Shown: positions 14,668 to 43,004 of the stretch, one piece after another
Numbering within the stretch: position 1 is the stretch's first letter
How the letters are laid out: each line of letters opens with the position of its first letter
Assembly (NCBI GenBank): GCA_036275955.1
Contig: DASUCO010000070.1
Location: 1-43,004 of the forward strand
Length of the DNA stretch: 43,004 nt
DNA from: Acidimicrobiales bacterium
GTDB taxonomy: Bacteria; Actinomycetota; Acidimicrobiia; Acidimicrobiales; CADCSY01
Reading direction: 5' to 3'
Program-made: the position numbers and the translations under genes
Notes under the pieces: model-generated
The model's input: only the letters and a program-made list of their open reading frames with translations
Database searches by the model: none
What the model was told of the DNA's origin: nothing

Positions 14668-17600
14668 TCATTCGTCGGTTTCCAGGAAGTCGACGAGCGG
14701 CCCGGAGCTTTTCTGGCGGGCCGCCCCCTGGAGGGCTTGACCCAATGGACCAAAGTCCTTAAAGGACTGCATCCACTCGATCACCCGCGCCGGCCCGGCG
14801 GCCGCGGGCTTCGCGGCATCGCGCGGCTTTTCGGACAACCGGTCTTTGTAGGCGTCGTGCCAGTCGACCAGGCCGGAGAGCCGTTCGCGCAGCTCGAACA
14901 GCGCGCTCGGCACGCCGCAGTTCCATTCGAGCGTCGACGATTCGACCAGCACGTCGGCGCCGCCGCCGCCGCGCAGCTGGTCGCGACCGTCGCCGCCGAC
15001 GAGGAGGTCGTCCGCCGCCCCGCCGCGCAGGTCGTCGTTGCCGGCGCCGCCGAAGAGCTGGAGGTGCGCCACCACCACGCCCGAGCCGTCGATCTTGTCG
15101 TTGCCCGCGCCGGCGTCGACCAGCGTGGACATGGTGAGGCCGTCCAGCTCCACGTGATCGTTGCCGCCCAGCGCGGCGACGTCCAGCGACGTGATGCCGG
15201 AGTAGTAGCGGGTCTCGCCGTTCACCGTGACGCGCACGATGCCGCCCTCGTCCTCGACGATCTCGATCTTGTCGTTGCGCTCGGTGCCGCGCACTTCCAG
15301 CGTGCGCTCCGATTGCGCCACTTCAAGCTGCCAGGTCTGCTCGGCTGCCCCGCCGTTGCCGTCCGACACCCGCAGCGCAAAGCTGTAAATCCCCGGCGCC
15401 GAAGGCACCCAGTGCAGCTCGCCCGTGCCCGCGTCGATCACCGCGCCCGCCGGCCCTTGCAGCAGGCTATAGGTGAGCGTGTCGCCATCGACATCGACTG
15501 CGTCCGCGTCGTACCGGTAGGGCGCCGCGGCCGGCGCAGCGAGGCCGCCGATGCGCACGCGCAGCTCGTCGTGCTTGTGCTTGCCGTCGTCCCACGCAAG
15601 CATCAGCGCGCCGCTCGCGTCGAATTGCGCGCGCACGCGATCGGCGCCGTCGGCATTCGCCTCCGCGATGGAGAACGTAGCCGCGTCCTTCTTCTTGTCG
15701 CCCTTCGCATAGAACGCGTACAGCGCGCCCGCCTCCAGCGTGAGGGTGCGGCTGGTGCCGTCGCGGTCCGCCTTGCCGAACGCCACCTGCGAGCGCGCGA
15801 GCGCCGCCGCGGCGTACGCCGGGTCGCCGGCGTCGATGCCGCTCACCGTGCCCCAGGTGTCGTCTACGCGATAGACACCGAATTCCGCCGGCGCGTCCTT
15901 CTCGCGCCCGAGGAGCGCGAAGCTCACCGTGCCGCCCGCCGCGCGGAACACGCTGTCCAGGTTGGCGCTCGAGCGCGGCGGATCGATGACGAGCGACGTG
16001 AGCGGCAGGGAGGTGAACTGCGGCCCGTCGTTCACACCAGTGATGGTGACCGTCACCGTGGCGCTCGACGTGGCGCCCGCCGAGTCCCGCATCGTGTACG
16101 TGAACGTGTCGAACGCGGTCTCGCCCACGGCGAGATGCTGGAAGTCGTCGCCGACTTCGTAGCGCACGCCGCCGCCGTCCGCGTCGATCGTCACCGTTCC
16201 GACAGTTCCGGCGAGATCGAGCGCCACCACGCTACGCGTGTCGCCGTCGTCTGCGTCGGTGTCGTTCGCCAGCACGTCGATGTGCACGCCGTGGTCTTCG
16301 TCCGTGCCGGCGACGTCGGCCTGGGCCTCGGGTGCATCGTTCACCGCACTCACGTCAATCGCCACCACATCGGTGTCGCTCAGCGCCGTCCCCGAACCGA
16401 ATCCGCCCAGGTCGTCGGTCGTGATCGTCAGGCTTGCCGCGCCGTTGAAGTTCAGGCCCGGCATGTACGTAAGACCATTGAGCGCGGCGTTGATCCCGGC
16501 GAGCGTGCCGCTGAAGGTCATCGCCGCGTCACCGCTGCCGTCGCCGCTCGTGAACGTCAGGCCGGCTATGGATCCAAGCGTGAGCTGTCCGTTGCCCGCC
16601 GCCAGCGTCACCTGGACAACCTCATCGCCCAGGACAGCGTTGTCGGCGTCGTCCACGTCCGCCACCGCGATCGCGTTGCCGTTGGCCGCAGAGAACACAA
16701 GCGCCGAGTCTTCGTTGGTGAACTGGGCGCCCGGCACGGTGTTCACCGGCGCGTCGTTAACAGGACCCACGGTGACCATCACCACGTCGGTATCCGTGAG
16801 CGGCGTGCCGAGGCCGAAGTTGCCCAGGTCGTTGGTCGTGATCGTCAGGCCCGCCGCGCCGTTGAAGTTCAGGCCCGGCGTGTAGGTCAGGCCGTTCAAC
16901 GCGGCGTTCACCCCGGCTAGCGTGCCGGTGAAGGTCATCGCGGCGTCGTCGCTGCCGTCGCCGCTCGTGAACGTCAGGCCGGCTATGGATCCAAGCGTGA
17001 GCTGTCCATCGCCGGCCGCGAGCGCCACCTGCACGACCTCGTCGCCCAGGACAGCGTTGTCGGCGTCGTCCACGTCCGCCACCGCGATCGCGTTGCCGTT
17101 GGCCGCAGAGAACACAAGCGCCGAGTCTTCGTTGGTGAACTGGGCGCCCGGCATGGTGTTCACCGGCGCGTCGTTCACCGGGAGCACGGTGATGGACACG
17201 CTTGCGTTGGCGCTCAGCGTGCCATCGCTGACCCGGTACTCGAAGCTGTCGATGCCGTTGAAGTTTGCGTGCGGCGCGTAGACGAACGAGCCGTCCGCAT
17301 GGAGCGCGAGCGTGCCGTTCGCAGGCCCGCTGACGAGAATCGCGCTGAGCGTGTTGGCCGGCAGGTCCGGGTCGCTGTCGTTGCCGAGCACGCCGCTTAC
17401 CGGCACGCTCAGCGTGCCGTCCTCGTCGAGGCTGTAGCTGTCGTTCTCCGCCAGCGGCGCCAGGTTGACCTCGTTGACCGTGACGGTGAGGGTCTCCTCG
17501 TCCCAGAGGTTGGGCGCACCGTCGTCCGTCACACGCACGGTGAAGGCATAGGCGCCGGGCCCTTGCGCCTCGGTCGGCGTCCAGGCGAACGCACCGGCTG

Positions 17601-20600
17601 CGGTAATCGTGGCGCCCTCGGGGGCACCCACCAGGCTGAACGTGAGACCGTTGGCGGGGACGTCCGGGTCGGTCGCCGCCGCGGTGAACGTCAGGGTTTC
17701 GAGCTCGTTCACCGTCTGGTCGCCGATCGCCGCCAGCACCGGCGCGGCGTTCACCTCGTTCACCGTGACGGTGATCGTCTCCTCGTCGAACAGGCTCGGG
17801 CTGCCGTGGTCGGTGATGCGCACGCGGAAGCTGTATTCGCCGGCCCCCTGCACCTCGGTCGGCGTCCAGGTGAAGACCCCGCTCGCGGCATCGATCTGCG
17901 CGCCTTCCGGCGAGCCGAACAGGCTGAAGGTGCGGCCGGTGTCCGGCAGGTCGGCGTCGGTGGCGAGCGCGGTAAAGGTGAGGGTCTCGAGCTCGTCGAT
18001 CGTGAAATCGCCGATGGCGGCGAGCACGGGAGCCACGTTCACTTCGTTGACCGTTACGGTAATCGTCTCTTCGTCGAACAGGCTCGGCGTGGCGTCGTCG
18101 CTCACCCGGATCGTGAACGTGTAGTCGGCGGGACCCTGGGCTTCGGCCGGCGTCCAGGCGAACCAGCCGGTCTCCGGGTCGATGGATGCGCCCGCCGGCG
18201 CGTCGATCAGGCTGAAGATGAAACCATCGGCCGGCGCGTCGAGGTCACCAGCGCTCACCTCGATCTCGAGCGTGTCGAGCTCGTTGATGGTGCGGTTGCC
18301 GACGAAGCTCATCTGCGGCGCGTCGTTGGTCCCATGGACGGTGACGCTGACGGTGGCGCTGCTCGTCTCCCCGGACGGATCGGCGATCGTGTAGCTGAAC
18401 CAGTCGGTGAGGGTCGCGCCGGCGGCCAGGTCCTGGAAGAGGCCGCGCACGTCGTACTCGATCCTGCCGTCCACCACCCTTAAGAAGGCGCCGGCCGACG
18501 AGGATTCCCCGACGCTGACGACGAGCGCATCGTCGTCCGGGTCGCTGTCGTTGGCGAGCACGTCGATCAGCACCGCGCCGCCGTCCTCGAGCGCGCTCGC
18601 CGCGTCGTCGGCCGCCAGCGGCGCGCTGTTGATGGCGTCGTCGAAGCGCACGTTGTCGATGGAGACGAACGAGCCGTGCCCGCCGAAGCCGAGCAGGTCG
18701 AAGTACAGCGTCGCCGCGCGCCCGGCCAGGCCGTCGAGGTCGATCGAGACGCTGATCGGCTCGGCAAGCGTCGCCGGCAGGACGTCGCCAGCCAGGCCGT
18801 GCAGCTTGACGCCGGCGCCGCGGCGGATCGTGCCGTCGGCCTGCACGTTGAAATAGCTGTCGGTCTGCGAAAGCGCCACGGTGCCCGTGAGCGGCGCGAG
18901 CGTCGCCGTGTCGAGCAGCGCGACCTCGAAGGCATCGCCGGGTCCGGCTCCGGGCGCGTCGAAATTTGCGCCGACGATGTCGAAGAGCAGATAACGGTGC
19001 CCGGGCAGGGTGAAGTCCTGCGTGATGCCGGAGTTGAGGCGCTCGTCTTCCGCGAGCGTGGCTGCGCCGCCGGCGAAGGAGACGCTGCCGCGCGCGTTCC
19101 AGCCGCTGCCGCTGTCGAATCCGCCGTCGAGGATGTGCTCGGCGTGCAGGTACGCAGTGCCAGTCCCGCCCGTGCCGGCGACGAAGTCCGCGGCCGTGGG
19201 CAGACGGCGCACGCCGGTGGCGAGGCTCTCGTGCATGACGCTGCCAGTGTCGTTCGCGTGCCGGGCGCCAAGCACATGGCCGTACTCGTGCAGGAGCACG
19301 GTCAGCACGTCCATGCCATCGAAGGCTTCGCTCGTCGCCGGCGTGGCGTCGGCATACCAGCCGTGCCCGGCGCCATCGTCGTCGAGCGTGATGATGGCCG
19401 AGCCGCCCGCCATCGACGTGTAGGCGAGCAGATCCCCGCCGAGGTCCGCCACCCGGACCTCTGCCGTCGCCATGCGCGAAGCGTCACCACCCAGAGCGGT
19501 CCAGGCGTCACGGGCGTGGGCGGCAAGAGTCGCAAGAGCGCCGAGCGAGCCATCGCCCGTTGACGTCCCCGTACCCGCGGCGAGCGGCGTGATCGATGCG
19601 GTACCCGTGCCGCCATCGTCATCGGTGATCGTGACCGTCACGCCGGTGGCGCCCTCGTGTACCACCACGGAGCCGGCATCGCTCAGAACGATGCCGTCGC
19701 TGAATGTCCAATCATAGCGGTGCGTGTCGAGCACGCCGGGATCGACGACGCTCGCGCTGAAGGTGCTGCCCTGCACGGCCACGCTCGCCGACGGCGCCAC
19801 GTTGAGCACCGTGAAGGTCGCCTCCTGCGCCGGGCCGACCTGCGACGGCTGCGGCGCGAGCACATACAGCAGGCGAACCTTGGCGGTGTACACGTCCGGC
19901 TGCGGCGTCGGACGGTCGTCGCGATAGACATGGCTCAGGGTCGTGCCGGCGTTGATCGGCAGCAGCTCGATCGGGATGCCGCTCTCGACCGTGCCGTCGC
20001 CCCAGTCGACCTCGAGCGCGTAGGCGTCGACCAGCAGCCCGACGCCGCGCACCGTGACCTCGATGCTCGCCGTGTCGCCTTCGTTCAGCGCGGCGCCGGA
20101 GAAGGCGAGCTCGATCGGATCGATGATGATGGTTTCGCTCACCTCGATGCGCGCGCTGTCGCTTGCCGTGCCGCCGTCGTCGTCCGTCGCCTCGAACGTC
20201 GCCGTGTAGCTTCCCGCCGCCAGGCTGAAGCCGGCGGCCGCAGTCGAGCGGCTCGCCACGATCGCGCCGGCCTCGTTGGTGATGGTCCACTGCACGTCGT
20301 GGGTGTCGAACGCCCCGGGGTCGTCGAACTGGCCGGTAAGGGTGAACACCTGGCCCGCCCGCACCGCGCGGTCGGGGCCCGCGTCCACGTCGGGCGCGAC
20401 GTTGTTCACCGTGACCGTATCGCTCGCGTCGACGAAGTCCTCGTCGTCATCGGTGACGCGGACGCTGACCCCGTACGGATCGGCCGGCGTGCCGCTCGGA
20501 TCGTCGTCCGCGTAGACATGCGAGAGCGGCACGGTCTGCGCCGCGCCGCCGGTGAGGAATACCGTCTCGACCGTGCCGTCGCCCCAGTCGACCTCGAGCG

Positions 20601-38600: not shown

Positions 38601-41600
38601 AGAGCTGCTCGGTCCAGTCGCCGCGGTCCGTGGGGCCGCTGCCGAGGTTGGTCACCGTGTAGCGCACCTCGACCTCGTTGCCCTCGAACGCCTGTACCGG
38701 CGCCACCACCCCGCCCATGACGAGGTCGGCGAACGGCCACGGGTTCACGTAAAGGACGTGGCGGCCGATGTTGTTGCCCTCGTTCGGCCACTCGTCGACC
38801 TGCCCGTTGTGGTCCGGCGAGACGAGGACGTAGACGTCGCCGCGGAAGCGCTTCGGAATCTGGAACACCGTCGAGCTCGACGAGTACTGGTCGCCGGCGT
38901 CGAGCGCCGAGCCGTTGACCAGCGAGCTCACCAGGATGTCGTCGGCGGTGATCTTGTCGTCGAGCGAGAGGTACACGCGGTCGGTCCAGATCGGCGCGCT
39001 GGTCGCCGCGCCGCCCTGGTTGATGACCACGAAGTCGATCGACGCGGTGCCGCCGGCGTCGACCGTGTCCGGCCCGGTGATCGAGAACACCTGCAGGTCC
39101 GGCCGCGGCAGCACGCTGAGCGCGATCTGCGCGTCGTCGACCGACTGGTTGTTGCCCTCGTCGTCGTGCTCGTAGACCTCGTCGGCGACGTCGGTGAAGA
39201 CCAGGATCTCGAAGCGGTCGCTGACCTTCTCCGGCAGCCGGATCTGCTCGCGCCGCGTGTAGCTCATGCCGGCGTCGAGCGGGCCCTGGTAGGTATAGCT
39301 GCCCACCGGCGTGCCGGCGCCGGTCTCGCCGAAGCGGCGCAGGAACACGCGGTCGGTCCACGAGCCCTCGGCGCGGCCAAGGCCGTCGTTCGTGACCGTC
39401 CAGGTCACGTCGATCGCCGCGCCTTCGGTCGCGTTCTGCGGCGCGACGATGTCGCTGACGACGAGGTCGGGCGCCGGCGCGAGGTCGATGCGGAACGGCC
39501 CGGAGACGCGCGTGTTGTCAGTGGTGTGGATGAACTCGTAGGGGCTGCCGCCGGGGTTCGACGTGCCCGGCACCTGCACCATCAGGTAGAAGGTGCCCGT
39601 CAGCCCGTCGGCAAGCTGCACGCTGCCGGTCCGCGTGTAGCTCGCATCGGGCGAGAGGAAGCCGAGGTGGCTGAAGCTGCCGAGGAAAGTCGCGCCGCTG
39701 CCGTCGGCATTCGGCGAGAGATACACGCGATCGAGCCATGACGAGGTGTTGGTGATGCCGATGCCCTCGTTCGTCACCTGCCAGCTGAATTCCAGCGTCT
39801 CGCCGGACAGCGCCACGGGCTGCGGCGTGACGAAGTCGACCACCAGGTCGGCGTACGGGATCGGGGTCACGTCGAGCACGCCCGCGAGCTGGGCGCGGTT
39901 GTTCGCCTCCTGGCCGCCCTCGAACACCGCGCCGTCGGCGTCGGGCGTGACGAACAGGTTGAAGCGCCCGTTCAACGCGGGCGGCAGCAGGAATGTCTCG
40001 CTGCGCGTGTACGACCCGTCGACCTCGAGGAAGCCGGTGTGGGTGTAGCGCGCCAGCAGCCGGTCGTCGCTGTTGCCGAAGATCGCGTCAGCCGACGCGA
40101 CGATCGAGTCGGTCCACGTCTCGGTGCGCCCTTCGCCCGTCCCCTGGTTCGTCACCGTCCAGCTCACCGTGACGCTGGCGGGATCGCCGACCACCAGCGA
40201 GGGCGCGCTGACCGCGCTCGCCACCAGGTCGGCGTACGGCGCAAGCGCCACCTCGACGAGCGTGCTCCTCAGGTTGTTTGCTTCGCCGGCGGCGAGCTCG
40301 CGCACCGCGTTGCCACCATCGAGCAGGACGATGATGCGGTATTCGCCCGAGGCGGTCAGGGGGATGTCGACCGTCGCCTCGCCGCTGTAGGTGGCGCCCG
40401 CCTCGAGCGGGCCCGCGGCGGCGAAACTGCCGAGCAGCACGTCGTCGGCGCTCACGGCGGCATCGCGCGAGAGATAGAGCCGATCGCTCCAGTTGCCGAG
40501 CGCCGGGCCGCTGCCGTCGTTGCGCACGGTCCACTGGACGAGCGCCGGCCCGCCCGATTCAATGTTCTCGTCGCCGAGAACCGCAATCGGAACGAGGTCT
40601 GGATGCCGCAGGGATAGCCGCGTGGCCGAGACACGCGTGTTGTTCGCCTCGGAGCCGTTCTCGAATACCTTCGCCTCGCTGTCGCTGCGCACGAGCACGT
40701 AGTAATCGCCATCCGCCGCATCGGGCAGCGGCGCACGCACGAGCGCGCTGTAGCTCTCTCCCGCCGCAAGCGGCGCGCCGCGAGCGAGCGAGCCGACCTG
40801 GATCGCGCCGTTCAGCGTGCCGTCGAGCGAGAGGTAGACGCGGTCGGTCCACCCGACGCTCGCCGACGCGTCGCCGGCATTGCGCACGGTGAACGTGAAG
40901 TCGCGCGTCTCACCCGGCACGCCGCCGGCGGGCACGACGATGTCGGTCACCTCGAGGTCCGGCGCCGGCGCCGGCGTGATCGTGATCTGGGCGACCGAGA
41001 CGCCGGCGTTGTTCTGCGTCAGGCCCTTCTCGTAGACCGCGCCGTTCACGTCCGACTTCACGAGGATGTGGAAGGTGCCGGTCGCCGCCGGCAGCACGAG
41101 GCTGCGCAGCACGCTGTAGCTGTCGCCGGCGGCGAGCGCCGCGCCGCGCGCGACGTCGCCCAGGAAGATGTCGTTGGCGCTGAACGTCGTGTCGGCGGAA
41201 AGCACGATGCGGTCGATCCATGCCGCGTCGGTCGGGCTGTCGCCGGCGTTGCGCACGCGCCAGGTGACGTCGATCGACTCGCCGGCGCGCGCCGCGGCGG
41301 GTCCCGCCACCGCCTCGACGGCGAGATCGGCGTAGGGCGCCGTCAGGCTGAACGCGTCGAAGCTGGCGTTGTTGCCGCGCGTGCCCGCCTCGGCCACCGC
41401 GCCGAGCGCATCGCTCAGCACGCCGATGAAGAAGCTGCCGTCCTGGCGCAGGGGCAGCAGCACGTCGAGCGTTTCGCTGTACCCCTCTCCCGGCGCGAGC
41501 CCGCCGCTGCGGGCGAAGCTGGCGAGGACGATGTCGTCCGCGTCGCCGAAGATCGTGTCGGTCGAGAGGATGATGCGGTCGGTCCACGACGACGCGGCGC

Positions 41601-43004
41601 TCGCCACGGAGCCATGGTTCTCGACCGTCCACGCCACCTCGATGGTCTCGCCGCCGCGCCCGCCCGCCGGCGCGCTGAACGCGGCCGCGGCGAGGTCGGC
41701 CGCCGGCACGACGAAATTGACGACGAAGTTGCCGCCGGCGGCGCCGTCGCCCGAAGGCAGCGGGAAGCCCGGCGCGCCATCGAGCGTGAGGCCGTCGAGG
41801 TCGCGGAAGGCCGCCGCCGAGCTGAACAACGTCAGGCTGTACGGCCCCGGCAGCAGCGCGGCGAAGTCGATCGCCACGCTGCGGGTGGCGTCGTCGTAGG
41901 CGAAGGCGGAGACGGCGACGTTGGTGTTGGTGAGCGTGTTGCGCAGCTGCACGTCCGCGCCGCTGAGGCCGGACGCGGCGAGCGACTCGCTGAAGGTCGC
42001 GGTGTAGTGCAGCGGCGCCGCCGGCACGCTGGCGCCGTCCGCAATCGAGCTCGCCACCACCCGCGGCGCGATGGTCGGGAACACGGTGATCGCGACCGTC
42101 GCTTCGCTCGACTCGAGCAGCGCATCCCGCAGCCGGAACGAGAACTGGTCGAACGGCGCGCCGGTACCGGCCTGCGGCGTGTAGCGCACGCGGCGCTGCG
42201 CGTCGGTGACGATGCCGGGCGAATCGAACGCCGTGCCGTCGAACTGGCGCAGCGTGCCGCGGGCCGGCAGAGCCGAGATGAAGGCGCTGAGCGCGTCGCC
42301 GTCGATGTCCGTGCCGGCCAGCGTGAGGGTGACCTCGGCGAGCTCGCCCGTGCTCACGGCGACGTTCGTCCCCACCGGCGCATCGTTCACCGGCGCCACG
42401 GTCACGCTGACCGCCGCGGTGTCGCGCCCGCCCCGGCCGTCGTCGACGACGTAGATCCAGGAATCGCTGCCGTGGAAGTCCGCGGCCGGCGTGTAGATGA
42501 AGCGATCGCCGGTCAGCTCGACCGTGCCGTGCAGCGGCGCGGTGAACGAATGCACGCGCAGCGGCTGCAGGTCCGGATCGGTGTCGTTCGCCAGCACCTC
42601 GACCATGACCGCGCCGTCTTCGAGCGTGGTCGCGGTGTCGTTGGCCGCGTCGGGCGCCTGGTTGCTGGTCACCACGTCGACGGTGACCTGCACCTCGCCG
42701 GAATCGGCCTGGCCGTCGTTCGCGACGTAGGCGAGGGTCGCGAACGGGATGCCCGCCTCGCCCGCCGGCGGCGAATAGACCACCCGGCGCTGCGCATCGG
42801 TGACCACGGTGCCCGCCGCGACGATCGGCGTGCCGTCGAACTGCGTGAGCGAGCCGGCGGCCGGCAGCGCCGTGATGCGCACGGCGAGCGCGTCGCCGTC
42901 GACGTCGGTGGCGCCGAGCGTCAGCACCACGCTCTGGTCGATGTCGGTGCTGGCGTGGTTGACGATGCGCGAGGCGGCGAGCGCCCATGCCGGCATGCGC
43001 GCCG
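14668..43004 (-). CDS. Megaprotein (more than 9,442 aa, probably 5'-partial): modular RTX-type surface/exoprotein with embedded lipase-like and metzincin-like modules
   Basis: Track ORF 14668..42996. The frame stays open for the remaining codons to the window edge, and the first residues (..RIVNHASTDIDQSVVLTLGATDVDGDAL) are mid-repeat. The stop is TGA 14670..14668. Real domain motifs occur throughout (see sub-features). GGxGxD repeats sit next to the C-terminus, as in T1SS substrates. Confidence 0.92.
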   Translation of the reverse strand, partial: ARMPAWALAASRIVNHASTDIDQSVVLTLGATDVDGDALAVRITALPAAGSLTQFDGTPIVAAGTVVTDAQRRVVYSPPAGEAGIPFATLAYVANDGQADSGEVQVTVDVVTSNQAPDAANDTATTLEDGAVMVEVLANDTDPDLQPLRVHSFTAPLHGTVELTGDRFIYTPAADFHGSDSWIYVVDDGRGGRDTAAVSVTVAPVNDAPVGTNVAVSTGELAEVTLTLAGTDIDGDALSAFISALPARGTLRQFDGTAFDSPGIVTDAQRRVRYTPQAGTGAPFDQFSFRLRDALLESSEATVAITVFPTIAPRVVASSIADGASVPAAPLHYTATFSESLAASGLSGADVQLRNTLTNTNVAVSAFAYDDATRSVAIDFAALLPGPYSLTLFSSAAAFRDLDGLTLDGAPGFPLPSGDGAAGGNFVVNFVVPAADLAAAAFSAPAGGRGGETIEVAWTVENHGSVASAASSWTDRIILSTDTIFGDADDIVLASFARSGGLAPGEGYSETLDVLLPLRQDGSFFIGVLSDALGAVAEAGTRGNNASFDAFSLTAPYADLAVEAVAGPAAARAGESIDVTWRVRNAGDSPTDAAWIDRIVLSADTTFSANDIFLGDVARGAALAAGDSYSVLRSLVLPAATGTFHILVKSDVNGAVYEKGLTQNNAGVSVAQITITPAPAPDLEVTDIVVPAGGVPGETRDFTFTVRNAGDASASVGWTDRVYLSLDGTLNGAIQVGSLARGAPLAAGESYSALVRAPLPDAADGDYYVLVRSDSEAKVFENGSEANNTRVSATRLSLRHPDLVPIAVLGDENIESGGPALVQWTVRNDGSGPALGNWSDRLYLSRDAAVSADDVLLGSFAAAGPLEAGATYSGEATVDIPLTASGEYRIIVLLDGGNAVRELAAGEANNLRSTLVEVALAPYADLVASAVSAPSLVVGDPASVTVSWTVTNQGTGEGRTETWTDSIVASADAIFGNSDDRLLARYTHTGFLEVDGSYTRSETFLLPPALNGRFNLFVTPDADGAVFEGGQEANNRAQLAGVLDVTPIPYADLVVDFVTPQPVALSGETLEFSWQVTNEGIGITNTSSWLDRVYLSPNADGSGATFLGSFSHLGFLSPDASYTRTGSVQLADGLTGTFYLMVQVPGTSNPGGSPYEFIHTTDNTRVSGPFRIDLAPAPDLVVSDIVAPQNATEGAAIDVTWTVTNDGLGRAEGSWTDRVFLRRFGETGAGTPVGSYTYQGPLDAGMSYTRREQIRLPEKVSDRFEILVFTDVADEVYEHDDEGNNQSVDDAQIALSVLPRPDLQVFSITGPDTVDAGGTASIDFVVINQGGAATSAPIWTDRVYLSLDDKITADDILVSSLVNGSALDAGDQYSSSSTVFQIPKRFRGDVYVLVSPDHNGQVDEWPNEGNNIGRHVLYVNPWPFADLVMGGVVAPVQAFEGNEVEVRYTVTNLGSGPTDRGDWTEQLWLTRDKNRPHPAAGDVLLSSVAYAGGALAKNAGYDRTVTVTLPEHVVSGTYYLMPWVDPFAQVLEDTLAVNVNPDDPNEINNNNYKARAIDLIGTPAPPPELVIAQQPDVAVTAVSADTEGVGGQAFTVSWTVENNGPGNAPSGWRDTVYLSEQPTLNAPGNHVFEIGSFSAPKSLSPGQSYTNTQTILLSPAAKGAYVIVRSGLSDLDPANDTASVATSVTDRVPDLQVTDIDTTPAFSGEKTTVSYTVTNASAHPIWSHTSYWTDEVWYSRDPSFILERATKAASIQQPGPLAAGASYTREVEISLPPGVGGDYYVYVFTNVENVKDPRAHGWPILSGGGPGYYGVHAYEYPLNNMAQAPLPVEYREPDLRVTALNAPESAAATESVAISFTVTNVGNRATRETSWTDRVYLSRDGSLDDADYLLGDFVRRSALDVGGSYVATVHATLPFDLPSGEFHLIAMADSGIGQSGWATSDLSPRLPGVRGDANGRVREFQGEGNNATSAEFEITAAPAPDLRVSTLEIDERAVRGQKFDLSYTVTNFGAATPTAQAAWDDLVYLSRDEFLDTRADRFLGSIRHTGGLGANASYSVERSYVVPTDLATEAYYVFVVTDPARTNASGEVFEGADERNNDRASAAPLIVELPPPTDLVVTAVAVPASARSGETVHLEWTVTNQSETVAASGSWTDALYLSQDAAWDIGDRALGRATFTGTLAPGASYTLSLDAGLPPATPGHYRVIARTDVFNQVHEDVNEANNRTASADTLEATVDELRLGVPLNTHLDPGEERLYRITVPADRTMRVTLRSDSDQVANEIYVRHDGVPTASAFDATYTGPLSSDLTALVPSTKPGTYYVLVRGFSGPQEGSGIRLFAELLPLAITDVQTDRGGDSSYVTLTIRGAQFHEDAIVKLSRPGIAEYEPVSWRVVDSSKIIAAFDFSGAPHGLYDLEVINPSGDTAAVPYRFLVERAIEPDVTIGIGGPRVILAGDQATYSVALQNLGNLDAPYTFFQVGVPQLNFNPILYGLPYLEFFTNVRGTPEGAEGGANEAVPWLELESIVNTDGHLTTSGYLLDQPADGFSGFSFNVITYPGLRALHERAFDAFRARMAAAFPEHDHLLEDGAEGLEDWWDAVIDTVKEIDAGVGNALSEIDFVGLYNQNEAVPDECRIPFIPFRFHVFATATTMTREEYVAHQSAEARALRDAILDDAEAPAPLVALAGDEAAWVDLYLAALEDAGLLRDDGDAPPIREKQHIVSLMATLASGILFGPAGSEIRSDADLLGFFERLRELYGHDQARPAPIEYMDFRESECFEGWVPVPLLPEFEDYDLGLSNPTHFEAFRVYVPWMGFPNRGAGLPTDFQVGGPAPVDGDEFAELDFSRYFTEEGAAGRAASITGPQTFDTQGWLPADAALPYSIGFQNAEGASRYVNEIRVVTQLDTDLDGHSFELGDIKLGDISIDVPDGRALFQTEIDFVQTRGFVLRVSAGIDRFQTPNQATWLIQAIDPLTGEVLQDATRGLLAPNDGLGAGAGFVSYSVKPKAEIATGAEISASARVLFEGQAAEDTLVLTQMVDGAAPTSHVAVQRIGATSDFQVSWQSTDDAGGSGFKHVTLYVATDGGDFKIWQRQVPDASGSAVFQGEAGHTYEFLALATDSAGNREAPAPGVNATADDSGINLGALPSVERTTPPDFGQAPAPLPQPSQNPLFAAAEAGIPAAAPATRLSEFDSVLRPFVAQAFATGIDASQSGIGPMAIVETPSGDVLVSGGASRSEIWRFGRDGGTAGAPWASLDVPVFNMAFDAEGRLWATTGGGALVQLDPASGTIVNRFGDGVTMALAVQPETGLLFVSTNSGVQTFDPASGLFTQYSRDGNLRVGSLAFDAQGDLWATTWPDRTHVVRFTDRARAEVMLEFEEGVDSLAFGREGSPLDSLLFVSHNSGELTMVDTATLREVALARGGSRGDVVATTRDGRVLVSQSGQVDVVSPAVAPKVLSTSVPADSTVLLPLPFISVRFDQDMSASVLDAASYRLVGETTGLQAAQGVIYDAATRTSLVTFHSLLADDYTLTVEDTVSSGFGLRLAADYTTGFTALGDLTGLIDVSFGSTRSDRSLGTVSFDVSITNTSDGALVLPVLLTLDPLDGYPGVPLDAAGQSHDGRWLIDLSGSLPPDGRLLPGQSSAARTVSVESPDRRRVEFSAGVSAGAAPNRAPLFDSTPPLEAVAGNPFAYDANAADPDGQAVVYHLLSAPDGMTVHAETGVVTWEVPALVPAQATVVLQAFDSRGAVTLQRFVLDIEGGNEAPRFHGLPDEALGREGEAMDFAVVAADADLDALTFWADGLPAGASFDPATRLFSWTPGFDAAGTYQLRLFAADDLSQTVASVTLLVAEGRQPPVLVKPADRFAQEGDPIRLRLDARGDGAAELRFSSTRLPFGATLHPETGVFDWTPDFTQAGVYDIPLRVSDGAQSASAVMRLTVGAANGAPVFDPQDGWETYEGQPLVINLFAFDPDNPFYGRPFRAADGSLIRFSDTAATVSVAADLLPAGASFDTETWDFTWTPTHAQAGTYELRFIATDDGGLSDEIVVPVEVLNLNRRPVIEAVQNATVQRDATMQFTVRATDPEGNPVVLSATSEQPGFPLPAFMQFTDYGDGTGVFTLAPHAGDRGDHAVKLVARDNGDGTGPALESSFVFVVSVESENEPPVLEHLGDAVAVLGQPFLLPVRVSDADQDPLAYSVAGLPGATVISTGVYGRAVVHWVPTAPGSHTVTVTASDGTEATSATFDLVVRAANSAPLLLPVGERTVAEGELLTFQLQAIDADGDAPTFSAESLPAGATLDAETGVFSWRPALNRAGTYAITFVASDGAGASSDTVAITVTNANQAPAFVPMFTQLARENAEIRFTVVAADADAEPLVLSAFGLPEGALFVPTRGELVWTPSFEQAGVHVVTFAAQDTSGGTGTMAVTLRVADVNRDPSLDESSHAFLLGEERSFTLTASDPDADDVLTFTALDLPEGATLDADTGLVTWTPGPGQAGDHVVTFVASDGVAAARQTIVMRASLEPVAPAVRIELTPRFPALPGQRVLVHAIADSLADIASLRLFAGGEEIALDANGRGTLVAGAPGKLDLTAIAVDADGIEGRAEAELKVRDAADKLAPVVSLAAIDGAIVAAPTAVSASVQDANLDFWRLELRAADGTVKVLASGEAAASGALATIDPRTLVNGFYSLELTARDIGGRLSTTEAQIEIRSAQKTEQVLRTETDLAVDLDGFQLTLERRYDSLASDTQGSFGDGWRLALRDVAVDLNMERFTDATRAVVTLPDGAREGFRFQPVAERVGPATFYRAAWRADGAHGWTLQSEGGLLTRAGGKYYDASTGQAYEPRVYTLTAPDSTRYTVDAERGVTEIRAASGARVFVSDSGITGADGAALRFVLDEDGRIVRVTAPDGGALVYRYDADGRLVAARDLADGAGQRYAYTDGKLSLALDIGDDADLGGFAQFTGRTFSGDLGAGGSDSYAFSARASEIAAAAGQVLLLRAAVEGDATLVAPGLTQLSATIFAISEEGLYELRVEGSGAYTLALAAGGDLNLDGAVDGQDSALLPPGDTGARQVLFANYGFFANQAPAVNAVLPDVLTHEGLPVTIDLGSVASDPDGDAVYYRVAGVTHGSAALTADGQSVVFTPEAGFSGAAQLEIIADDGFNVSALAELEIEVSNAELIGLDFAQRSVRLGAGASAAIRLLGDFADQADVALPLWYVNARTLDAGVAGLSADGMLTGLADGTTVLLAERGSLAAATAVAVGAPVRPSDVSVYFFGIDAYPDTLTLAPDADKQMSVMWGTSTFVTGAAQGTRYFTGDSSVISVSADGLIHAVGAGETTVTVIHKSGEQVVPVRVAAPVSGPAIVGAEGGVVQGADGHRVSIGPGQLSADTPVTIEKIDQADLAIPVPDIFDFAGAFRLDIGAGRLEQPVQVAVPVDASFAAGDKVYFFQEVDVPDEHGVMHTRWAAMETGVVGDDGYARTSSPPWPGLSERGNILMARANQPLRDVSVHLGNILNPGYLLVASTGIIGLIIYLDQVILPFAEGVAEIQAYSTWSNKSVTREVTVVDITQHTDRVRVTLPQVSPDTPGRPPIIDDVAYSVDAQGNGRLEITGQRFINPDAPEVGGESPGSDPRDLRVVFSMGATDVIVEGEDFIEASPERLVVQVPQQVLLGLSKIIVERPFSQLGLGGEEETRWIASPAAILDDPGGYGFIGSHLDNKLRVIDVARADDEDAEDVVVKEIDLGARMQVDTVATKDRTRAYVATREGIAIIDTVALQRVDADGETPEIDRIALPNDVVPTAIAIDPFDRYLYVAGRDEIFVIDIRAGADTLHQVVDVIAGLQTARGYISALAVNADDTKLYVAAPDSVLVGGANSWVTGGRDKGEILVVNIDIADAPGPEEPNTQRWHEVIGRLDGDLEPFSIRATADPDKMMFTSRLKIERGLGTIEVTNASPLAFAADVKFIDLSMKQRIEERFQLGIRNAAEVAVLPDLSYAFVADYGFPWFLGTGNPNAFIEYDDTHETGGKVGLVRDPFGDAEFIAATSPISLTFVNELELSSDGLKLYANYRGPGEVVVFDVEEFIRASKSLGDDVLKHQPIDRHADIHFDAIPIGELTKGIGMQVTDPIDLIAPTGMKRVHQENGDLEFQWHIDTSLLGTEDYTVRVYVSSQPSGDGLFPWDEPRSRDEFWDAAPGWKGADRNPHRIWTSEDIEAGTESMLLPEAVRHALTAGNRYYWGIELIVGEDVYRESASFVAQPIDTGAPYNGVTVLTHGFQFGMSFGEQAYEQPAAFMALGELIADASGGGVVLSYNKLTGEWVDRLNNKTGKDALEAGKAVVLVSDWNKESDVSDSGFSEAAADSLFASLVALDAESGGQIFGSPLHFIGHSRGTVVNSEILQRMGVHFPDVQDIHMTTLDPHDFEQESLNVPLKTIVQVISAGLSLVPGLAPVMRVVNKGLEYAERMGLAIDPIPYADFKDPDVKVWSNIGFADNYYQTLAPMDSTTLTPNGVAIEGADINLKLDGSAGFERDDYRLGFTLPSGLDFLADALGLETVKDFGLGGPHSRVWQWYAGTVDLDILEFDDNPIFRRITDEGLMARAVGLPTYRFNAEPWYTSLPLSPELADMEDAWKLEGAIWEGITAGWYYSATGGGDEDRPDEAFEGVDPAAEDNTEVTKGAEVVASVFNGGFEHGGRQSLLTHLFGDDEEKGRFPASYELPGWSFHGGEGFHINAFGEHFDIAGLFSIETDWRNLFLKPFAEKIWDFVGEKAVKFASNKLKHDAFGLPRPPDDSSSDGYKRWYEENWGEDSPNKERVEQSNKAYEKLEELVGKLVEMGIQGTPLEEALKTDEGIEGVKESIGSGIEKLLEKVFGEPGDMALLMGAGQVLKDVMGASIPEGMEGFFEDLLDQVVDLDTIRHNRLYVPADAEVLSFEIFSPVMLTKDAAIEVRFLPTTIGEGAPAAATDPVLVQLTPGFWEKNRYFVEVPEEYRGQVAMLEFKHVHLEDTIAVSFSPEDLLPGLDDPASTLSQVYFLDDIRFAPRIQLDIDDVDERELATLLIDFKPFDSSVETVLDVDWGDGVVQKVTVAAGGTHASLTRRFTDDSPSNTESDTKTVKVSGANAGAGEARFDVRNVAPEILEVLVDPSDLIEGEEVVLTGRYRDVSPDDTFTITIDWGDGTLDTLENQGPLGSQEGTFELRHKYVDDDPQTGTPADIMDLRITVQDDDLGVDEVILHPVVHNEAPELGELQLSATEIDEGGTVTLSGTFTDKGFEDTFELEVDWGNGETELIDLGPFADGNGSFSVSHTYADDDPDTGTPEDSFTIAVKLTDDDTGAAQGEATLTVRNVAPEFSGLVLTPDAIEGDTVVLAGFFADPGTDTFELLVDWGDGSGPETVFLTHEDMSFVLEHVYADDEAPGEDDVYDVTVTLVDDDTGEVEEALTVAVANAAPELFLDFASTSVDEGELVELFAEVSDAGESDELTLEVDWGDGTVETVFLTGGAAQTVPLSHVYADDDPSGTPADPYGVSVRVTDDDEDFVDASDTVTVNNVAPDVDAGPDRAVRAGQVFTLTGQFDDPGAFDTHDVQWTITNEAGAIVASRSTAAAGFSLAAGSYTATFEATDDDGGTASDSARIEVSETIIIDPIELAFSGAALNEGDTASIEVTVRGVGLLVDAYALEVDWGDGTVESGIPIELLPINAGTTLSHVYRDDRPTPQPDVYTAKVRLLYVLAPQPSQVGPAQEATFTVLNVAPSASVAVQGSTFSASVVDPGVLDTHRYDWTFSDGIVLSDAGSVVVHEGATGVTVTITDDDGGTGTASITPLAAGTGTSTGDGSLGALATLAAHARDAWTALGGDASRMATAEVRVADLGGDLLAYTSMAGGSAIITLDDDGAGHGWYADATPATSEAFDGMDVLTVLLHEYGHVLGARHANDTGSVMHESLATGVRRLPTAADFVAGTGGTGTAYLHAEHILDGGFDSGSGWNARGSVSFAGGAATLAEDERLNSGITQDFTLPGHRYLLFDIVGANFDAPGAGPGDAFEVALLDTATLAPLTGTVALSQTDSYFNVQADGTIRRGAGVKLHGLAGDVLPATLAEPISVSIDLDGLAGRAATLYFDLLGFGGHGSFVSIDNVRFDDAINSAPLAADDAASALEDGGAVLIDVLANDSDPDDDALVVSVGESSSAGAFLRVVDGRIEYDVRGLFQDLAAGATLTDWFSYTIADPSGETSSATVSVTVHGTNDAPQMSFVGNRTINELDTLEIEVSAGDLDAPADGFIFSLIDAPAGASIDPETGWFAWTPAEAQGPADYTFTIRVSDDATPSLFDEETITVTVNEVNVAPVLAAIGDFTIDELETLTFTALATDADLPDTGRTFSLFGSPEGAQIDAASGVFTWTPTEVQGAGEYSFRVRITDHGSPSLFDEETITVTVNEVNAAPVLAAIGDQTVNELETLTFTAAATDPDVPANGLTFSLVGAPEGATITAAGAFAWTPTEAQGPGAYAFTVRVTDDGAPNLWDEETLTVTVNEVNLAPLAENDSYSLDEDGTLSVPVSGVLGNDSDPDLPANTLSAILVSGPANGTLALHADGSFVYAPHANFNGIDSFEYRVSDGTLSANASVSITVLPVNDAPVNTMPGAQFTNEDSALVFSAANGNAIAVADVDDADNAVLGDEVVQVALAAGDGQLTLGSIAGLTFTSGDGSDDAAMTFTGTLAGVNAALNGLTYTPGLNFNGAAGLTITTNDLGNFGLGTPLTDTDVVMVTVGPVNDAPVNTVPGAQFTNEDSALVFSAANGNAIAVADVDDADNAVLGDEVVQVTLAAGNGQLTLGSIAGLTFTSGDGSGDAAMTFSGTLAGINAALNGLTYMPGLNFNGAASLTITTDDLGGFGSGTALSDTDVVAIDVSAVNDAPEAQADVAGTDEDHGVHIDVLANDTDADDGDTRSVVALDLAGTVGTVTIDADGGGVRYEVGDDFQHLAVGETAFDTFTYTMRDSAGATSSATVTVTITGVNDGPQFTSLPLTSLVIDPPRSSANLDSVFRAAGGTVSFALLGREKDAPAEFGVYRVDDTWGTVSGIDAGDPAYAAAALARSQVAFGKADRDGTSRTLTLEAGALYAFYAKGDKKKDAATFSIAEANADGADRVRAQFDASGALMLAWDDGKHKHDELRVRIGGLAAPAAAPYRYDADAVDVDGDTLTYSLLQGPAGAVIDAGTGELHWVPSAPGIYSFALRVSDGNGGAAEQTWQLEVAQSERTLEVRGTERNDKIEIVEDEGGIVRVTVNGETRYYSGITSLDVAALGGNDHVELDGLTMSTLVDAGAGNDKIDGSGVVVAHLQLFGGAGNDDLRGGAADDLLVGGDGRDQLRGGGGADVLVESSTLEWNCGVPSALFELRERLSGLVDWHDAYKDRLSEKPRDAAKPAAAGPARVIEWMQSFKDFGPLGQALQGAARQKSSGPLVDFLETDE
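14945..15200 (-). repeat. C-terminal RTX Ca2+-binding repeats followed by a tail of about 90 aa (candidate T1SS secretion signal)
   Basis: LGGNDHVELDG...AGAGNDKIDGSG...FGGAGNDDLRGGAADDLLVGGDGRDQLRGGGGADVLVES, followed by a non-repetitive tail ending ..PLVDFLETDE*. Confidence 0.8.
15541..15895 (-). other. DUF4114-like domain (degenerate)
   Basis: EFGVYRVDDTWGTVSGIDAGDPAYAAAAL......LEAGALYAFYA......FSIAEANADGADRVRAQ....LMLAWDDGKHKHDELRVRIGG. It resembles the DUF4114 pattern (..ANPDG.DH.......FED..GGD.D.ND.V..V) but lacks the GGD-D-ND core. Confidence 0.4.
16345..17178 (-). repeat. Near-identical tandem duplication, 2 x 417 bp (2 x 139 aa)
   Basis: Units 16762..17178 and 16345..16761 both begin VNDAPVNT(M/V)PGAQFTNEDSALVFSAANGNAIAVADVDDADNAVLGDEVVQV. 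Long DNA stretches are identical, for example ggccgcagagaacacaagcgccgagtcttcgttggtgaactgggcgcccggca at 16684 and 17101. Confidence 0.85.
17465..18333 (-). repeat. Three tandem 285-bp (95-aa) Ig/cadherin-like repeats
   Basis: The block gtt(g/c)accgt(t/g)acggt(a/g)at..tc(t/c)tcgtc... recurs at about 18041, 17756 and 17471. The protein units end ...SLFDEETITVTVNEVN(V/A/L)AP. Confidence 0.7.
18640..19155 (-). other. Jelly-roll / lectin-like domain (family uncertain)
   Basis: AYLHAEHILDGGFDSGSGWNARGSVSF..ATLAEDERLNSGITQDFTLPGHRYLLFDIVGANF....DAFEVALLD....ATLYFDLLGFGGHGSFVSIDNVRFDD. This pattern is common next to metzincin motifs in giant exoproteins. Confidence 0.35.
19200..19480 (-). other. Metzincin-type zinc-metalloprotease motif region (HEYGHVLGARH + SVMH)
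   Basis: Translation gives EVRVADLGGDLLAYTS..GSAIITLDDDGAGHGWYADATP..SEAFDGMDVLTVLLHEYGHVLGARHANDTGSVMHESL. The HExxHxxGxxH motif lies at 19290..19258 (first His is residue 7903 of the track ORF). A Met-containing turn follows 8 residues downstream. Confidence 0.65.
19600..21925 (-). repeat. PKD-like repeat array (six 'DWG[DN]G' units plus two PKD-like units without it)
   Basis: The plus-strand string gccgtcgccccagtcga(c/t), which encodes (V/I)DWGDG, or its variant gccgttgccccagtcgac (VDWGNG), occurs at about 21806, 21511, 21189, 20878, 20575 and 19992. Units run NVAPE...L....I.EG..V.L.G.F.D.....F...VDWGDG.......H.Y.DD. PKD-like units carry DTHDVQWTI and DTHRYDWTFSDG. Confidence 0.6.
21925..22995 (-). 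other. Jelly-roll-like domain split by a K/E-rich helical insertion of about 150-200 aa
   Basis: The N-terminal half is VFNGGFEHGG....YELPGWSFHGG. The C-terminal half is NRYFVEVPEEYRGQVAMLEFKHV...SQVYFLDDIRFAP. These mirror the intact copy at 18640..19155 (ILDGGFDSGSGWNARG...ATLYFDLLGFGG.GSFVSIDNVRFDD). The insert is ...NKERVEQSNKAYEKLEELVGKLVEMG...IEKLLEKVFG. Confidence 0.35.
23300..24260 (-). other. Alpha/beta-hydrolase domain, pancreatic-lipase / phospholipase-A1-like, with a complete Ser-Asp-His triad
   Basis: Oxyanion region VTVLTHGFQFG (about 24207..24240). Nucleophile elbow HFIGHSRGTVV (Ser codon 23874..23872, residue 6375 of the track ORF). TTLDPHD (Asp codon 23787..23785, residue 6404). 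GGPHSRVWQWY (His codon 23349..23347, residue 6550). All four were verified from the DNA. Confidence 0.7.
24790..25910 (-). other. YVTN-type (lactonase-like) 7-bladed beta-propeller
   Basis: About 373 aa with repeated units of the type ...TRAYVATREGIAIIDTVA / PTAIAIDPFDRYLYVAGRDEIFVIDIRAG / ISALAVNADDTKLYVAAPD / SSDGLKLYANYRGPGEVVVFDV. Confidence 0.55.
26950..27780 (-). other. Cadherin-like unit plus two Big_2-like Ig domains
   Basis: Cadherin-like: NQAPAVNAVLPDVLTHEGLPVTIDLGSVASDPDGDAVYY. Big_2 signatures: ..ARTLDAGVAGLSADGMLTGLADGTTVLLAERG and ..GDSSVISVSADGLIHAVGAGETTVTVIHKSGEQVVPVRV. Confidence 0.5.
28200..28800 (-). repeat. Short run of YD/RHS-type repeats
   Basis: FGDGWRLAL..., TLPDGAREGFRF, YTLTAPDSTRYTVD, RVTAPDGGALVYRYDADGRLVAARD..GQRYAYTDGKL. 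I verified 28261..28320 and 28741..28800 by reverse-complement translation. Confidence 0.55.
29450..32000 (-). repeat. About 9 He_PIG / dystroglycan-type cadherin-like Ig repeats (about 95 aa)
   Basis: A recurring pattern is present: N.AP.F.........G......V.A.D.D.D.L.F.A..LP.GA.(F/L)D..TG.F.WTP...QAG.Y.......DG. Examples: LPAGASFDPATRLFSWTPGFDAAGTY, LPAGATLDAETGVFSWRPALNRAGTY, LPEGATLDADTGLVTWTPGPGQAGDH. Confidence 0.65.
32660..33400 (-). other. Beta-propeller (NHL/SGL/Vgb-lyase-like blades)
   Basis: Blade-like units repeat: PSGDVLVSGG..EIWRF, FDAEGRLWATTGGGALVQLDPASG, QPETGLLFVSTNSGVQTFDPASG, FDAQGDLWATTWPD..VVRF, SLLFVSHNSGELTMVD, TRDGRVLVSQSGQVDVV. Confidence 0.5.
35690..36290 (-). other. 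PPC (pre-peptidase C-terminal)-like domain followed by an IPT/TIG-like Ig domain
   Basis: PPC-like: LGVPLNTHLDPGEERLYRITVPADRTMRVTLRSDSD..NEIYVRHDGVP...GTYYVLVRGFSG. TIG-like: ITDVQTDRGGDSSYVTLTIRGAQFHEDAIVKLSRPG...DLEVINPSGDTAAVPYRFLV. Confidence 0.5.
36300..41700 (-). repeat. 14 tandem CARDB domains (about 128 aa each)
   Basis: There are fourteen units of PDL.V......P..A..GE...V.WTV.N.G...A...W.D.VYLS.D......D..LG.......L..G.SY.......LP....G.YY..V..D....V.E..E.NN. The W-x-D cores are SSWTDRIILSTD, AAWIDRIVLSAD, VGWTDRVYLSLD, ... GSWTDALYLSQD. I checked the boundaries against the DNA at 41695..41709 and 36301..36360. Confidence 0.75.
41701..42996 (-). repeat. Cadherin-like / VCBS-type repeats followed by an SbsA-type Ig-like domain
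   Basis: Two paralogous units are present (VNHASTD..LTLGATDVDGDALAVRITALPAAGSLTQFDGT..VTDAQRRVVYSP and VNDAPVGT..LTLAGTDIDGDALSAFISALPARGTLRQFDGT..VTDAQRRVRYTP). They flank NQAPDAANDTATTLEDGAV.VEVLANDTDPD...FIYTPAADFHGSDSW.YVVDDG. Confidence 0.6.

Follow-up and report, generated by a model that had tools for sequence, protein, structure and literature searches.

The 43,004-nt stretch analysed here (the window), taken from a contig of an Acidimicrobiales bacterium of the Actinomycetota, is occupied for 65.9% of its length by a single gene, which we call giant1. We find that giant1 is an intact gene for an acidic, cysteine-poor, RTX-bearing exoprotein with many Ig-like domains, of the LEPR-XLL family of giant exoproteins, and we hold the assignment to this family with high confidence. 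Our best explanation, which we regard as modestly probable, is that giant1 encodes an extracellular calcium-binding fibre of this family that would be exported by a type-I-like, SecA-driven mechanism. The route itself, through a module of SecA-like, HlyD and TolC proteins, is suggested by gene content and is put forward with a confidence at or just below even. The family is already known, in RefSeq; the relationship between cargo and machine appears to be undescribed. Proteins of this size are rare in bacteria and almost never studied. Those above 5,000 amino acids (aa) in which Big_9, Cadherin, HemolysinCabind and DUF11 domains are combined nevertheless form a recognised class (PMC11573180), so size and modularity alone are not new.

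giant1 is a single uninterrupted open reading frame (ORF) on the minus strand (14668..43004), closed by a TGA stop at 14668-14670. At the right edge the frame reads cg-gcg-cgc-atg and still runs on at base 43004; within the window it meets no in-frame stop upstream. It has 9,444 codons (9,442 counted from the first ATG), and residue i begins at window base 43002-3(i-1). The GC content at third codon positions (GC3) is 0.90-0.97 in each 3-kb bin, and the entire stretch is therefore coding on the minus strand. A plus-strand ORF of 6,694 aa (19657..39741) was discarded as an antisense shadow of giant1 (GC content at first codon positions, 0.95). The encoded protein is acidic (14.6% Asp+Glu vs 5.8% Lys+Arg) and has only three cysteines in 9,444 residues (2633, 2777 and 9362). 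The length, the uniform GC3 and the collinear relatives described below uphold the view of a preliminary description of this DNA, that a single, real, modular megaprotein fills 66% of the window and is still open at its right edge.

The modules of giant1, from its N-terminal to its C-terminal end, and its two neighbours in the window are the following; (-) denotes the minus strand.

42088..42975 (-), residues 10-305: three Ig-like repeats (Big_9/Cadherin/He_PIG type), then a Big_5-like domain at residues 310-390
36325..41700 (-), residues 435-2226: exactly 14 CARDB repeats with a period of ~123 aa
36022..36234 (-), residues 2257-2327: PPC (pre-peptidase C-terminal) domain, 26.5 bits vs a cut-off of 25.9
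33283..36015 (-), residues 2330-3240: conserved module of ~900 aa with no firm Pfam match (DUF7619 sub-threshold only)
32623..33330 (-), residues ~3225-3460: beta-propeller 1, Reg_prop above cut-off, then Big_5 at residues 3450-3551
29461..31965 (-), residues 3680-4514: nine He_PIG/Big_9 Ig-like repeats, including a PKD match
27778..28860 (-), including the following segment: DUF6531-like segment and ~5-6 YD/RHS repeats, residues 4715-4940
After the YD repeats (-), residues 4940-5075: PPC-like segment and dockerin-like calcium-binding loop
Residues 5077-5344 (-): Big_9 and Big_2, by Pfam
24673..25935 (-), residues ~5690-6110: YVTN/lactonase-like beta-propeller, sub-threshold (Lactonase 19.1 bits vs a cut-off of 21.7)
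23203..24255 (-), residues ~6250-6600: lipase-like alpha/beta-hydrolase module
21898..23085 (-), residues ~6640-7035: jelly-roll-like domain split by a Lys/Glu-rich helical insert, from sequence appearance, with no Pfam match
19786..21891 (-), residues 7038-7739: six PKD-like 'DWGDG' repeats
19183..19485 (-), residues ~7840-7940: mini-matrixin (metzincin) module
Residues 7955-8125 (-): second jelly-roll-like region, from sequence appearance, with no Pfam match
16033..18624 (-), residues 8127-8990: ~9 cadherin-like/tandem-95 Ig repeats
14671..16035 (-): C-terminal cassette, with a DUF4114-like region (residues 8990-9150), He_PIG (9155-9228), RTX (~9270-9352) and a tail (9353-9444)
14245..14571 (-): DUF3467 gene, 108 aa, E 4.6e-23, 96 nt downstream of the giant1 stop
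1..13771 (-): giant2, another gene of giant size (>4,590 aa), with its ATG at 13771 and running off the left edge

The protein is thus a scaffold in which runs of Ig-like spacers (CARDB, He_PIG, PKD-like, cadherin-like) link two propellers, a YD sheet, the 900-aa module and two hydrolase modules. The preliminary description had read the modules in essentially this order, and its calls of 14 CARDB repeats, PPC, about nine He_PIG repeats (nine were found), YD repeats, the first propeller, Big_2, PKD-like and cadherin-like repeats and RTX were all recovered.

The closest complete relative of giant1 is WP_275890958.1 (12,737 aa), encoded on the closed plasmid pDSM107133_a of a cultured strain, Pseudosulfitobacter sp. 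DSM 107133. It aligns with residues 449-6713 of giant1 in one high-scoring segment pair, at 45% identity over ~6,700 aligned columns. Similar matches are given by WP_255337275.1 of Mesorhizobium ciceri (10,518 aa; giant1 residues 448-6073, 42% identity) and WP_042466302.1 of Anabaena cylindrica (11,150 aa; residues 451-5484, 43% identity); WP_013334799.1 of Gloeothece verrucosa, a 'YD repeat protein', is a further LEPR-XLL relative. Two metagenomic representatives, P0143 and P0144, reach 53% identity over ~3,000-3,500 residues. Residues 779-8892 are matched collinearly by a frameshifted metagenomic locus (L004) on a JGI contig of 1.29 Mb, and residues 9110-9444 by a farmland-soil contig (L001), where the synteny with DUF3467 and giant2 is found again. 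Independent relatives are thus collinear with almost all of the giant1 frame. An exact look-up of the DUF3467 protein returned a single contig, of 3.1 kb, from farmland soil. The organisms that carry the relatives live in soil or the sea or are cyanobacteria; they are not pathogens.

What giant1 shares with the LEPR-XLL giants, at 42-45% identity over 5,000-6,700 aligned columns, is the order CARDB, PPC, 900-aa module, propeller, He_PIG, YD, second propeller, lipase-like hydrolase. This makes for a conserved architecture of 10,000-13,000 residues, with at least two intact-looking catalytic modules, common to Proteobacteria and Cyanobacteria. The C-terminal third of giant1 (PKD-like, matrixin, jelly-roll, cadherin-like, DUF4114-like and RTX) differs, in that it is not collinear with the Pseudosulfitobacter giant; neither this giant nor that of M. 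ciceri has an RTX motif in its last 1,000 residues. The family corresponds to NCBIfam NF012209 ('LEPR-8K') and to the Pfam motif PF07595 ('Planctomycete extracellular'), and its members bear generic RefSeq names such as 'putative Ig domain-containing protein', 'CARDB domain-containing protein' or 'YD repeat protein'. We found no functional study of LEPR-XLL giants in the literature.

The N-terminus of giant1 very probably lies outside the window, as the preliminary description held: the frame enters with no leader, and relatives start further upstream with LEPR-XLL. The first residues do belong to an Ig-like repeat (residues ~10-108), as had been noted, but the entry falls at about its first strand and not in its middle. 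giant1 has 434 residues before the CARDB array in the window, its relatives have ~380 to ~3,900, and the closest ones (53% identity) have ~2,900-3,300 before the equivalent position. The upstream parts of the relatives are not collinear with residues 1-327 of giant1 and therefore set no fixed length for the missing part. A search of genome and metagenome contigs with the N-terminal 400 residues returned only distant relatives and did not recover the true N-terminus.

Among the relatives, NF012209 matches the Pseudosulfitobacter and M. ciceri giants with 34.1 bits each (cut-off 17), and 7 of the 10 other collinear relatives with plausible starts also pass the cut-off. The Anabaena homologue has neither a LEPR-type N-terminus nor export-module neighbours. 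By analogy with the matching relatives, the missing N-terminus of giant1 would bear a LEPR-type leader, in which LEPRxLLSA accompanies a basic stretch. In 2004 Studholme et al. put forward the LEPR-type motif as a new kind of export signal, and proteins that carry it have been recovered from an outer-membrane-type fraction of Tuwongella (PMC8567305). The motif (LEPRxLL) was also noted in giants of Chlorobium chlorochromatii, which were said to lack known transport signals (bioRxiv 10.64898/2026.03.19.712371).

The evidence on export comes from the genes that accompany the giants. DUF3467 is a conserved companion of LEPR-XLL giant genes, a feature that is empirical and not a formal criterion; in the proteobacterial members, as here, its gene lies directly downstream of the giant. 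We compared seven DUF3467-bearing alphaproteobacterial plasmid loci, in six of which DUF3467 directly follows the giant gene. The SecA-like and PqqD/M50-like genes were scored with hidden Markov models (HMMs) only in Pseudosulfitobacter and M. ciceri; in Pontibrevibacter and Methylosinus they were identified from RefSeq product names, size and position. The loci are organised as follows.

Pseudosulfitobacter: the giant is followed by DUF3467, a HlyD-type adaptor with GAF, a 716-aa PqqD/M50-like protein and a 660-aa SecA-like ATPase
M. ciceri: giant of 10,518 aa, order as in Pseudosulfitobacter, HMM-scored
Pontibrevibacter: giant of 10,603 aa, order as in Pseudosulfitobacter, per RefSeq annotation
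Methylosinus sp. C49: giant of 8,847 aa, order as in Pseudosulfitobacter plus TolC, per RefSeq annotation
Thalassospira marina: giant of 4,033 aa, with DUF3467, HlyD proteins and TolC, and no SecA-like gene in the stretch read
Terrarubrum: giant of 5,482 aa and an overlapping 828-aa Ig-like ORF that abuts DUF3467, with DUF3467, a hypothetical protein and one HlyD adaptor only
Octadecabacter: fragmented and rearranged locus (DUF3467 not directly after the giant), with HlyD, site-2-protease-family and TolC fragments

In Pseudosulfitobacter the ATPase matches SecA_DEAD with E 7.5e-99, and a further adaptor is encoded divergently upstream. The PqqD/M50-like membrane protein matches PqqD with 26.8 bits (cut-off 23.4) and daptide_HExxH with E 1.5e-42. 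The stretches read of Thalassospira, Terrarubrum and Octadecabacter contain no SecA-like gene, and no ABC (ATP-binding cassette) exporter is annotated in those of any of the seven loci. The giants adjacent to the module have the N-terminal motif in common and their C-termini are not conserved, which speaks against a common C-terminal signal for module-linked giants. We also considered DUF3467 as a SecB-like chaperone and do not claim it: hhalign against Escherichia coli SecB gave a probability of 0.2%. The DUF3467 protein had no match among the sequences of the PDB.

Such a set of genes was described by Kamneva, Poudel & Ward in 2015 as a 'secondary SecA_DEAD' module, related to type I secretion and with its substrate unnamed (PMC4452313). 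It consists of a SecA-like ATPase, HlyD proteins, GAF-HlyD, a Peptidase_M50-like membrane protein and sometimes OEP/TolC, and ranges over Planctomycetes, Verrucomicrobia, Proteobacteria, Nitrospirae as well as Chlorobi; neither DUF3467 nor giant proteins are mentioned in that paper (PMC4452313). The genes downstream of the closest complete homologues of giant1 match this module (by HMM in Pseudosulfitobacter and M. ciceri), and its phyletic range overlaps with the reports of LEPR-type motifs in Planctomycetes, Proteobacteria and Chlorobi. The window differs in that, of the companion genes present at the loci of the relatives, it holds DUF3467 only. Our literature search found no paper joining LEPR-XLL, DUF3467 and the secondary-SecA module, no functional study of DUF3467 and no follow-up to the 2015 paper.

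From these elements we propose the following mechanism. Starting from its LEPR-type leader, giant1 would cross the envelope through a type-I-like tripartite conduit of HlyD-type adaptors and TolC. The secondary SecA-like ATPase would power export and, together with the M50-like protein fused to PqqD, would replace the ABC transporter of the classical type I secretion system (T1SS). PqqD-type domains act as recognition elements (RREs) for peptide leaders in the pathways of ribosomally synthesised and post-translationally modified peptides (RiPPs). The PqqD/M50-like protein could likewise engage the giant1 leader, and DUF3467 would be a dedicated accessory factor for export of the giant. Outside the cell, calcium-driven folding of the RTX and Ig modules would drive and stabilise the fibre, which would then display its lipolytic and proteolytic activities or shed them. 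These and the nuclease of giant2 could jointly serve the contact-dependent degradation of the envelopes of other cells or of extracellular polymers.

More broadly, and with a confidence below even, LEPR-XLL giants may be the missing cargo of a distinct pathway, in which the SecA-like ATPase and the PqqD-M50 protein, an M50-like intramembrane metalloprotease, recognise, and perhaps cleave, LEPRxLLSA, passage continues through HlyD and TolC, DUF3467 is accessory, and the window is a two-cargo locus. This would tie at one locus three orphan features: the LEPR-type motif, DUF3467 and the secondary-SecA/HlyD/M50 module. If the link is true, it names the cargo of an uncharacterised secretion route and makes it testable in culturable strains such as Pseudosulfitobacter sp. 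DSM 107133, M. ciceri R30 and Methylosinus sp. C49; the system of the window would then use fibres of 5,000-13,000 residues to deliver the activities of a lipase, a protease and a nuclease.

Several observations weigh against the proposal of a SecA-exported degradative fibre. The window has no export gene except DUF3467, and DUF3467 is followed by giant2, not by adaptors as in the plasmid loci. The link between cargo and module is one of gene adjacency, in seven alphaproteobacterial plasmids. Two metagenomic loci with a C-terminal cassette of the giant1 type are not followed by DUF3467. Some relatives have no LEPR match, and the leader of giant1 is itself predicted from other proteins, its N-terminus being outside the window. 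The degradative role is suggested by domain content, and the fold matches of the lipase-like module are confident (probability 0.99) yet geometrically loose (TM 0.25-0.47). Finally, giant1 ends with RTX nonapeptides, where HemolysinCabind matches the last 216 residues with E 7e-9, and with an acidic tail of 92 aa that closes with DFLETDE; a block and tail of this kind are recognised by classical ABC-type T1SS.

This last point also speaks for the main alternative, which we consider unlikely: that giant1 is a classical RTX adhesin like LapA of Pseudomonas fluorescens, MpIBP of Marinomonas primoryensis or SiiE of Salmonella, exported C-terminus first by an ABC/HlyD/TolC system that reads the RTX block and tail. 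An N-terminal plug could then retain it on the surface until release by a LapG-type protease, and the enzyme modules would serve as accessory heads for ligand binding or degradation. giant1 resembles these adhesins in being giant, acidic and nearly free of cysteine, with C-terminal RTX and long arrays of tandem Ig-like extenders (calcium-binding in the adhesins) and with functional or ligand-binding modules near one end. Its C-terminal cassette is conserved in ~22 metagenomic proteins named RTX-like by their source, and the two cassette-bearing loci without downstream DUF3467 fit this alternative as well. On the other hand, the C-terminal target-domain models of NCBIfam for T1SS do not match giant1, only three of its repeat units are canonical GGxGxD, and the 43-kb window contains no gene for an ABC protein, membrane fusion protein (MFP) or outer membrane protein (OMP). 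The Pseudosulfitobacter and M. ciceri homologues, which lack the C-terminal RTX, lie beside HlyD, SecA-like and M50-like genes. Where LapA-type adhesins have an N-terminal retention module, the members of the giant1 family have the LEPR leader, with which the proteobacterial ones begin. The scaffold of giant1 is also far more heterogeneous, with hydrolases embedded in it. The preliminary description expected a classical T1SS and a LapG-type protease; this is not the best lead, given that the loci of the relatives carry HlyD, PqqD-M50, SecA-like and TolC genes and no annotated ABC exporter in the stretches read.

Far less probable is that giant1 is an artefact, either a chimera into which repeats collapsed during assembly or a pseudogene in decay whose frame is still open by chance. 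Its internal repeats are 65-87% identical in DNA, save for one 417-nt tandem duplication (16405-17175, 1.8 copies, 92% nucleotide identity) inside the cadherin-like region (residues ~8609-8866). This duplication looks recent, and it might be the sole place in giant1 where the copy number could have been mis-assembled. The homologous locus L004, interrupted by frame changes, is the other point in favour of an artefact. The coding signal is uniform over 28 kb, none of the 9,444 codons before the terminal TGA is a stop, and the same module order is found again in several assemblies made independently, as well as in a cultured strain's closed plasmid. Because independent sequences repeat this order, a chimera or a pseudogene is very unlikely.

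The preliminary description likened the protein to MARTX toxins. In a toxin of this type, of which RtxA of Vibrio is an example, a repeat scaffold would move the effectors, here lipase-like and metzincin, into a target cell and release them by autoprocessing. The likeness consists of very large size, two hydrolase modules placed between repeat arrays and RTX at the C-terminus, and the recurrent mini-matrixin could in principle process giant1. As a family assignment it fails, and we consider it highly improbable: we found no match to MARTX-specific domains in Pfam or NCBIfam, the Ig-like domains that make up the scaffold are of a sort typical for adhesins, and the relatives are not pathogens. 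The inositol-hexakisphosphate-activated cysteine protease domain (CPD) of these toxins is missing, as had been noted from the start: there is no match to Peptidase_C80, and none of the three cysteines is in a protease-like context. MARTX toxins also have glycine-rich A/B repeats at the N-terminus and C repeats of 18 residues; within the window, which does not reach the N-terminus of giant1, no A/B repeats of this type were noted, its repeats being Ig-like domains and those of the C-terminus ordinary nonapeptides. The least probable of all is an Rhs/YD polymorphic toxin, in which a YD shell encloses a C-terminal toxin: RHS_repeat matches with E 2.6e-7, YD_repeat_2x is above its cut-off and DUF6531 matches weakly, but ~5-6 YD repeats (~230 aa) are far too few for a shell, RHS_core scores 20.4 bits vs a cut-off of 2000, and the more than 4,000 residues after the YD segment match no RHS-core or toxin model.

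The LEPR-XLL family can also be compared with other giant extracellular proteins that combine repeats and hydrolase modules. Those of Omnitrophota (bioRxiv 10.1101/2023.11.21.568195) are also associated with SecA-related domains, which differ in lying within the giant protein itself. Cag_663 and Cag_665 of C. chlorochromatii (bioRxiv 10.64898/2026.03.19.712371) also have an N-terminal LEPRxLL. Both groups differ from giant1 in their unrelated domain composition and much larger size.

No part of giant1 is more distinctive than the 900-aa module, the 'unknown region' of the preliminary description, which forms the family's signature core. It is built from one Ig/TIG-like and one CARDB-like sandwich, a helical insert, more beta-sandwiches and an FN3-like domain. 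In a HMMER scan of 1.84 billion representative proteins, 9,171 relatives passed E<=1e-3, with 2,359 of these at E<=1e-30, and many relatives sit within proteins of 4,000-7,700 aa. In the AlphaFold2 model (pLDDT 80.9) a helical insert accompanies the beta-sandwiches, and the fold search returned only generic multi-Ig matches (integrin alpha, A2M/C3) with TM ~0.1. We dropped an A2M-like thioester reading because there is no conserved cysteine. There was no meaningful match among PDB sequences, the profile run having aligned propeller proteins to flanking sequence only. At the position after PPC, where a TIG domain had been reported, Pfam gives no match, and the AlphaFold2 model does place a beta-sandwich there.

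The Pfam matches at the N-terminal end of giant1 are Big_9, Cadherin_4/5 and Ig_SibA. Other calls of the preliminary description were borne out in part. The YVTN propeller stays just below the Lactonase cut-off, and the DUF4114-like region has no Pfam match of its own, PF13448 being found on its aligned homologues. The jelly-rolls were not confirmed by Pfam and remain a matter of sequence appearance. The Lys/Glu-rich helical insert that splits the first of them (window ~22300-22750, residues ~6750-6900) stands out in a protein with otherwise only 1.2% Lys.

Both hydrolase modules reported earlier were recovered, with intact catalytic motifs. The lipase-like module has a putative triad made of Ser6377, in the nucleophile elbow GHSRG, Asp6406, in TTLDPHD, and His6552, all nearly invariant in an alignment of 50 homologues. 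Its 78 homologues nearly all lack Pfam annotation, and many are proteins of ~500 aa that stand alone. The AlphaFold2 model (pLDDT 79.8, pTM 0.83) has its best Foldseek matches among solved structures in bacterial and fungal lipases and thioesterases. The module has no Pfam match and no meaningful PDB sequence match, and therefore represents an unclassified family; we read it as an alpha/beta hydrolase that is probably active. Its consensus runs into the start of the next jelly-roll, so both may form one unit. Members of the family (homologues of window 23023-24300) are sometimes fused to sorting domains of the type IX secretion system, to dockerin or to Endonuclease_NS.

The mini-matrixin carries a full HExxHxxGxxH zinc site (HEYGHVLGARH, residues 7905-7915) and a Met-turn (SVM, 7921-7923). 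Peptidase_M10 scores 29.2 bits (cut-off 24) and covers profile positions 96-137 only, and the alignment with karilysin and matrix metalloproteinases (E 7e-4) spans the same region. Hence only the C-terminal half of the catalytic domain is recognisable, and protease activity is a prediction from these motifs. The module, with the pattern DLLTV..HE.GHVLG..H....SVM....G.RRL, recurs at other positions (L004 ~24130, L009 ~34020, L011 ~7401). Its carriers besides giant1 are the metagenomic ortholog L004, the M. ciceri giant and the Anabaena giant, where it lies ~230 aa from the N-terminus. Since it occurs in other giants at varied positions, it is a conserved, mobile module of such proteins, and this recurrence hints at a shared role, possibly self-processing.

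The C-terminal cassette of giant1 also turns up on a different body. A 44.8-kb metagenomic contig (L005; ENA ERZ869936 NODE_368) encodes a giant, called as 11,834 aa with a 737-aa continuation, that has the giant1-type DUF4114/He_PIG/RTX cassette and a different internal architecture. Behind this giant come genes for a dCache-GGDEF protein and an inositol monophosphatase instead of DUF3467.

The window contains only giant1, DUF3467 and giant2; the preliminary description had not connected giant1 with the same-strand giant2 or with the DUF3467 gene between them. giant2 starts with MRFESLEPRLLLSADL, which matches LEPR-XLL (E 1.2e-8, 34.2 bits vs a cut-off of 17). It encodes a NucA-type non-specific nuclease (Endonuclease_NS, residues 111-340, E 3.8e-36) with a DRGH motif, and has an RTX block in mid-protein (residues ~2847-2960). 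It has no cysteine, 12.8% Leu, no internal repeats and ~4,000 aa without Pfam match. The plus-strand ORFs 23..5602 and 5729..13990 were rejected as shadows of giant2, with no Pfam matches and an antisense GC pattern. Scans of the window for Rfam families, promoters and terminators gave nothing informative; the gap between DUF3467 and giant2 (13772-14244) shows neither a sigma-70-like promoter nor an Rfam match, and its single terminator-like hairpin is weak and lies on the opposite strand. This gap measures 473 nt from the DUF3467 stop to the ATG of giant2, or ~390 nt should giant2 begin with the GTG at 13852.

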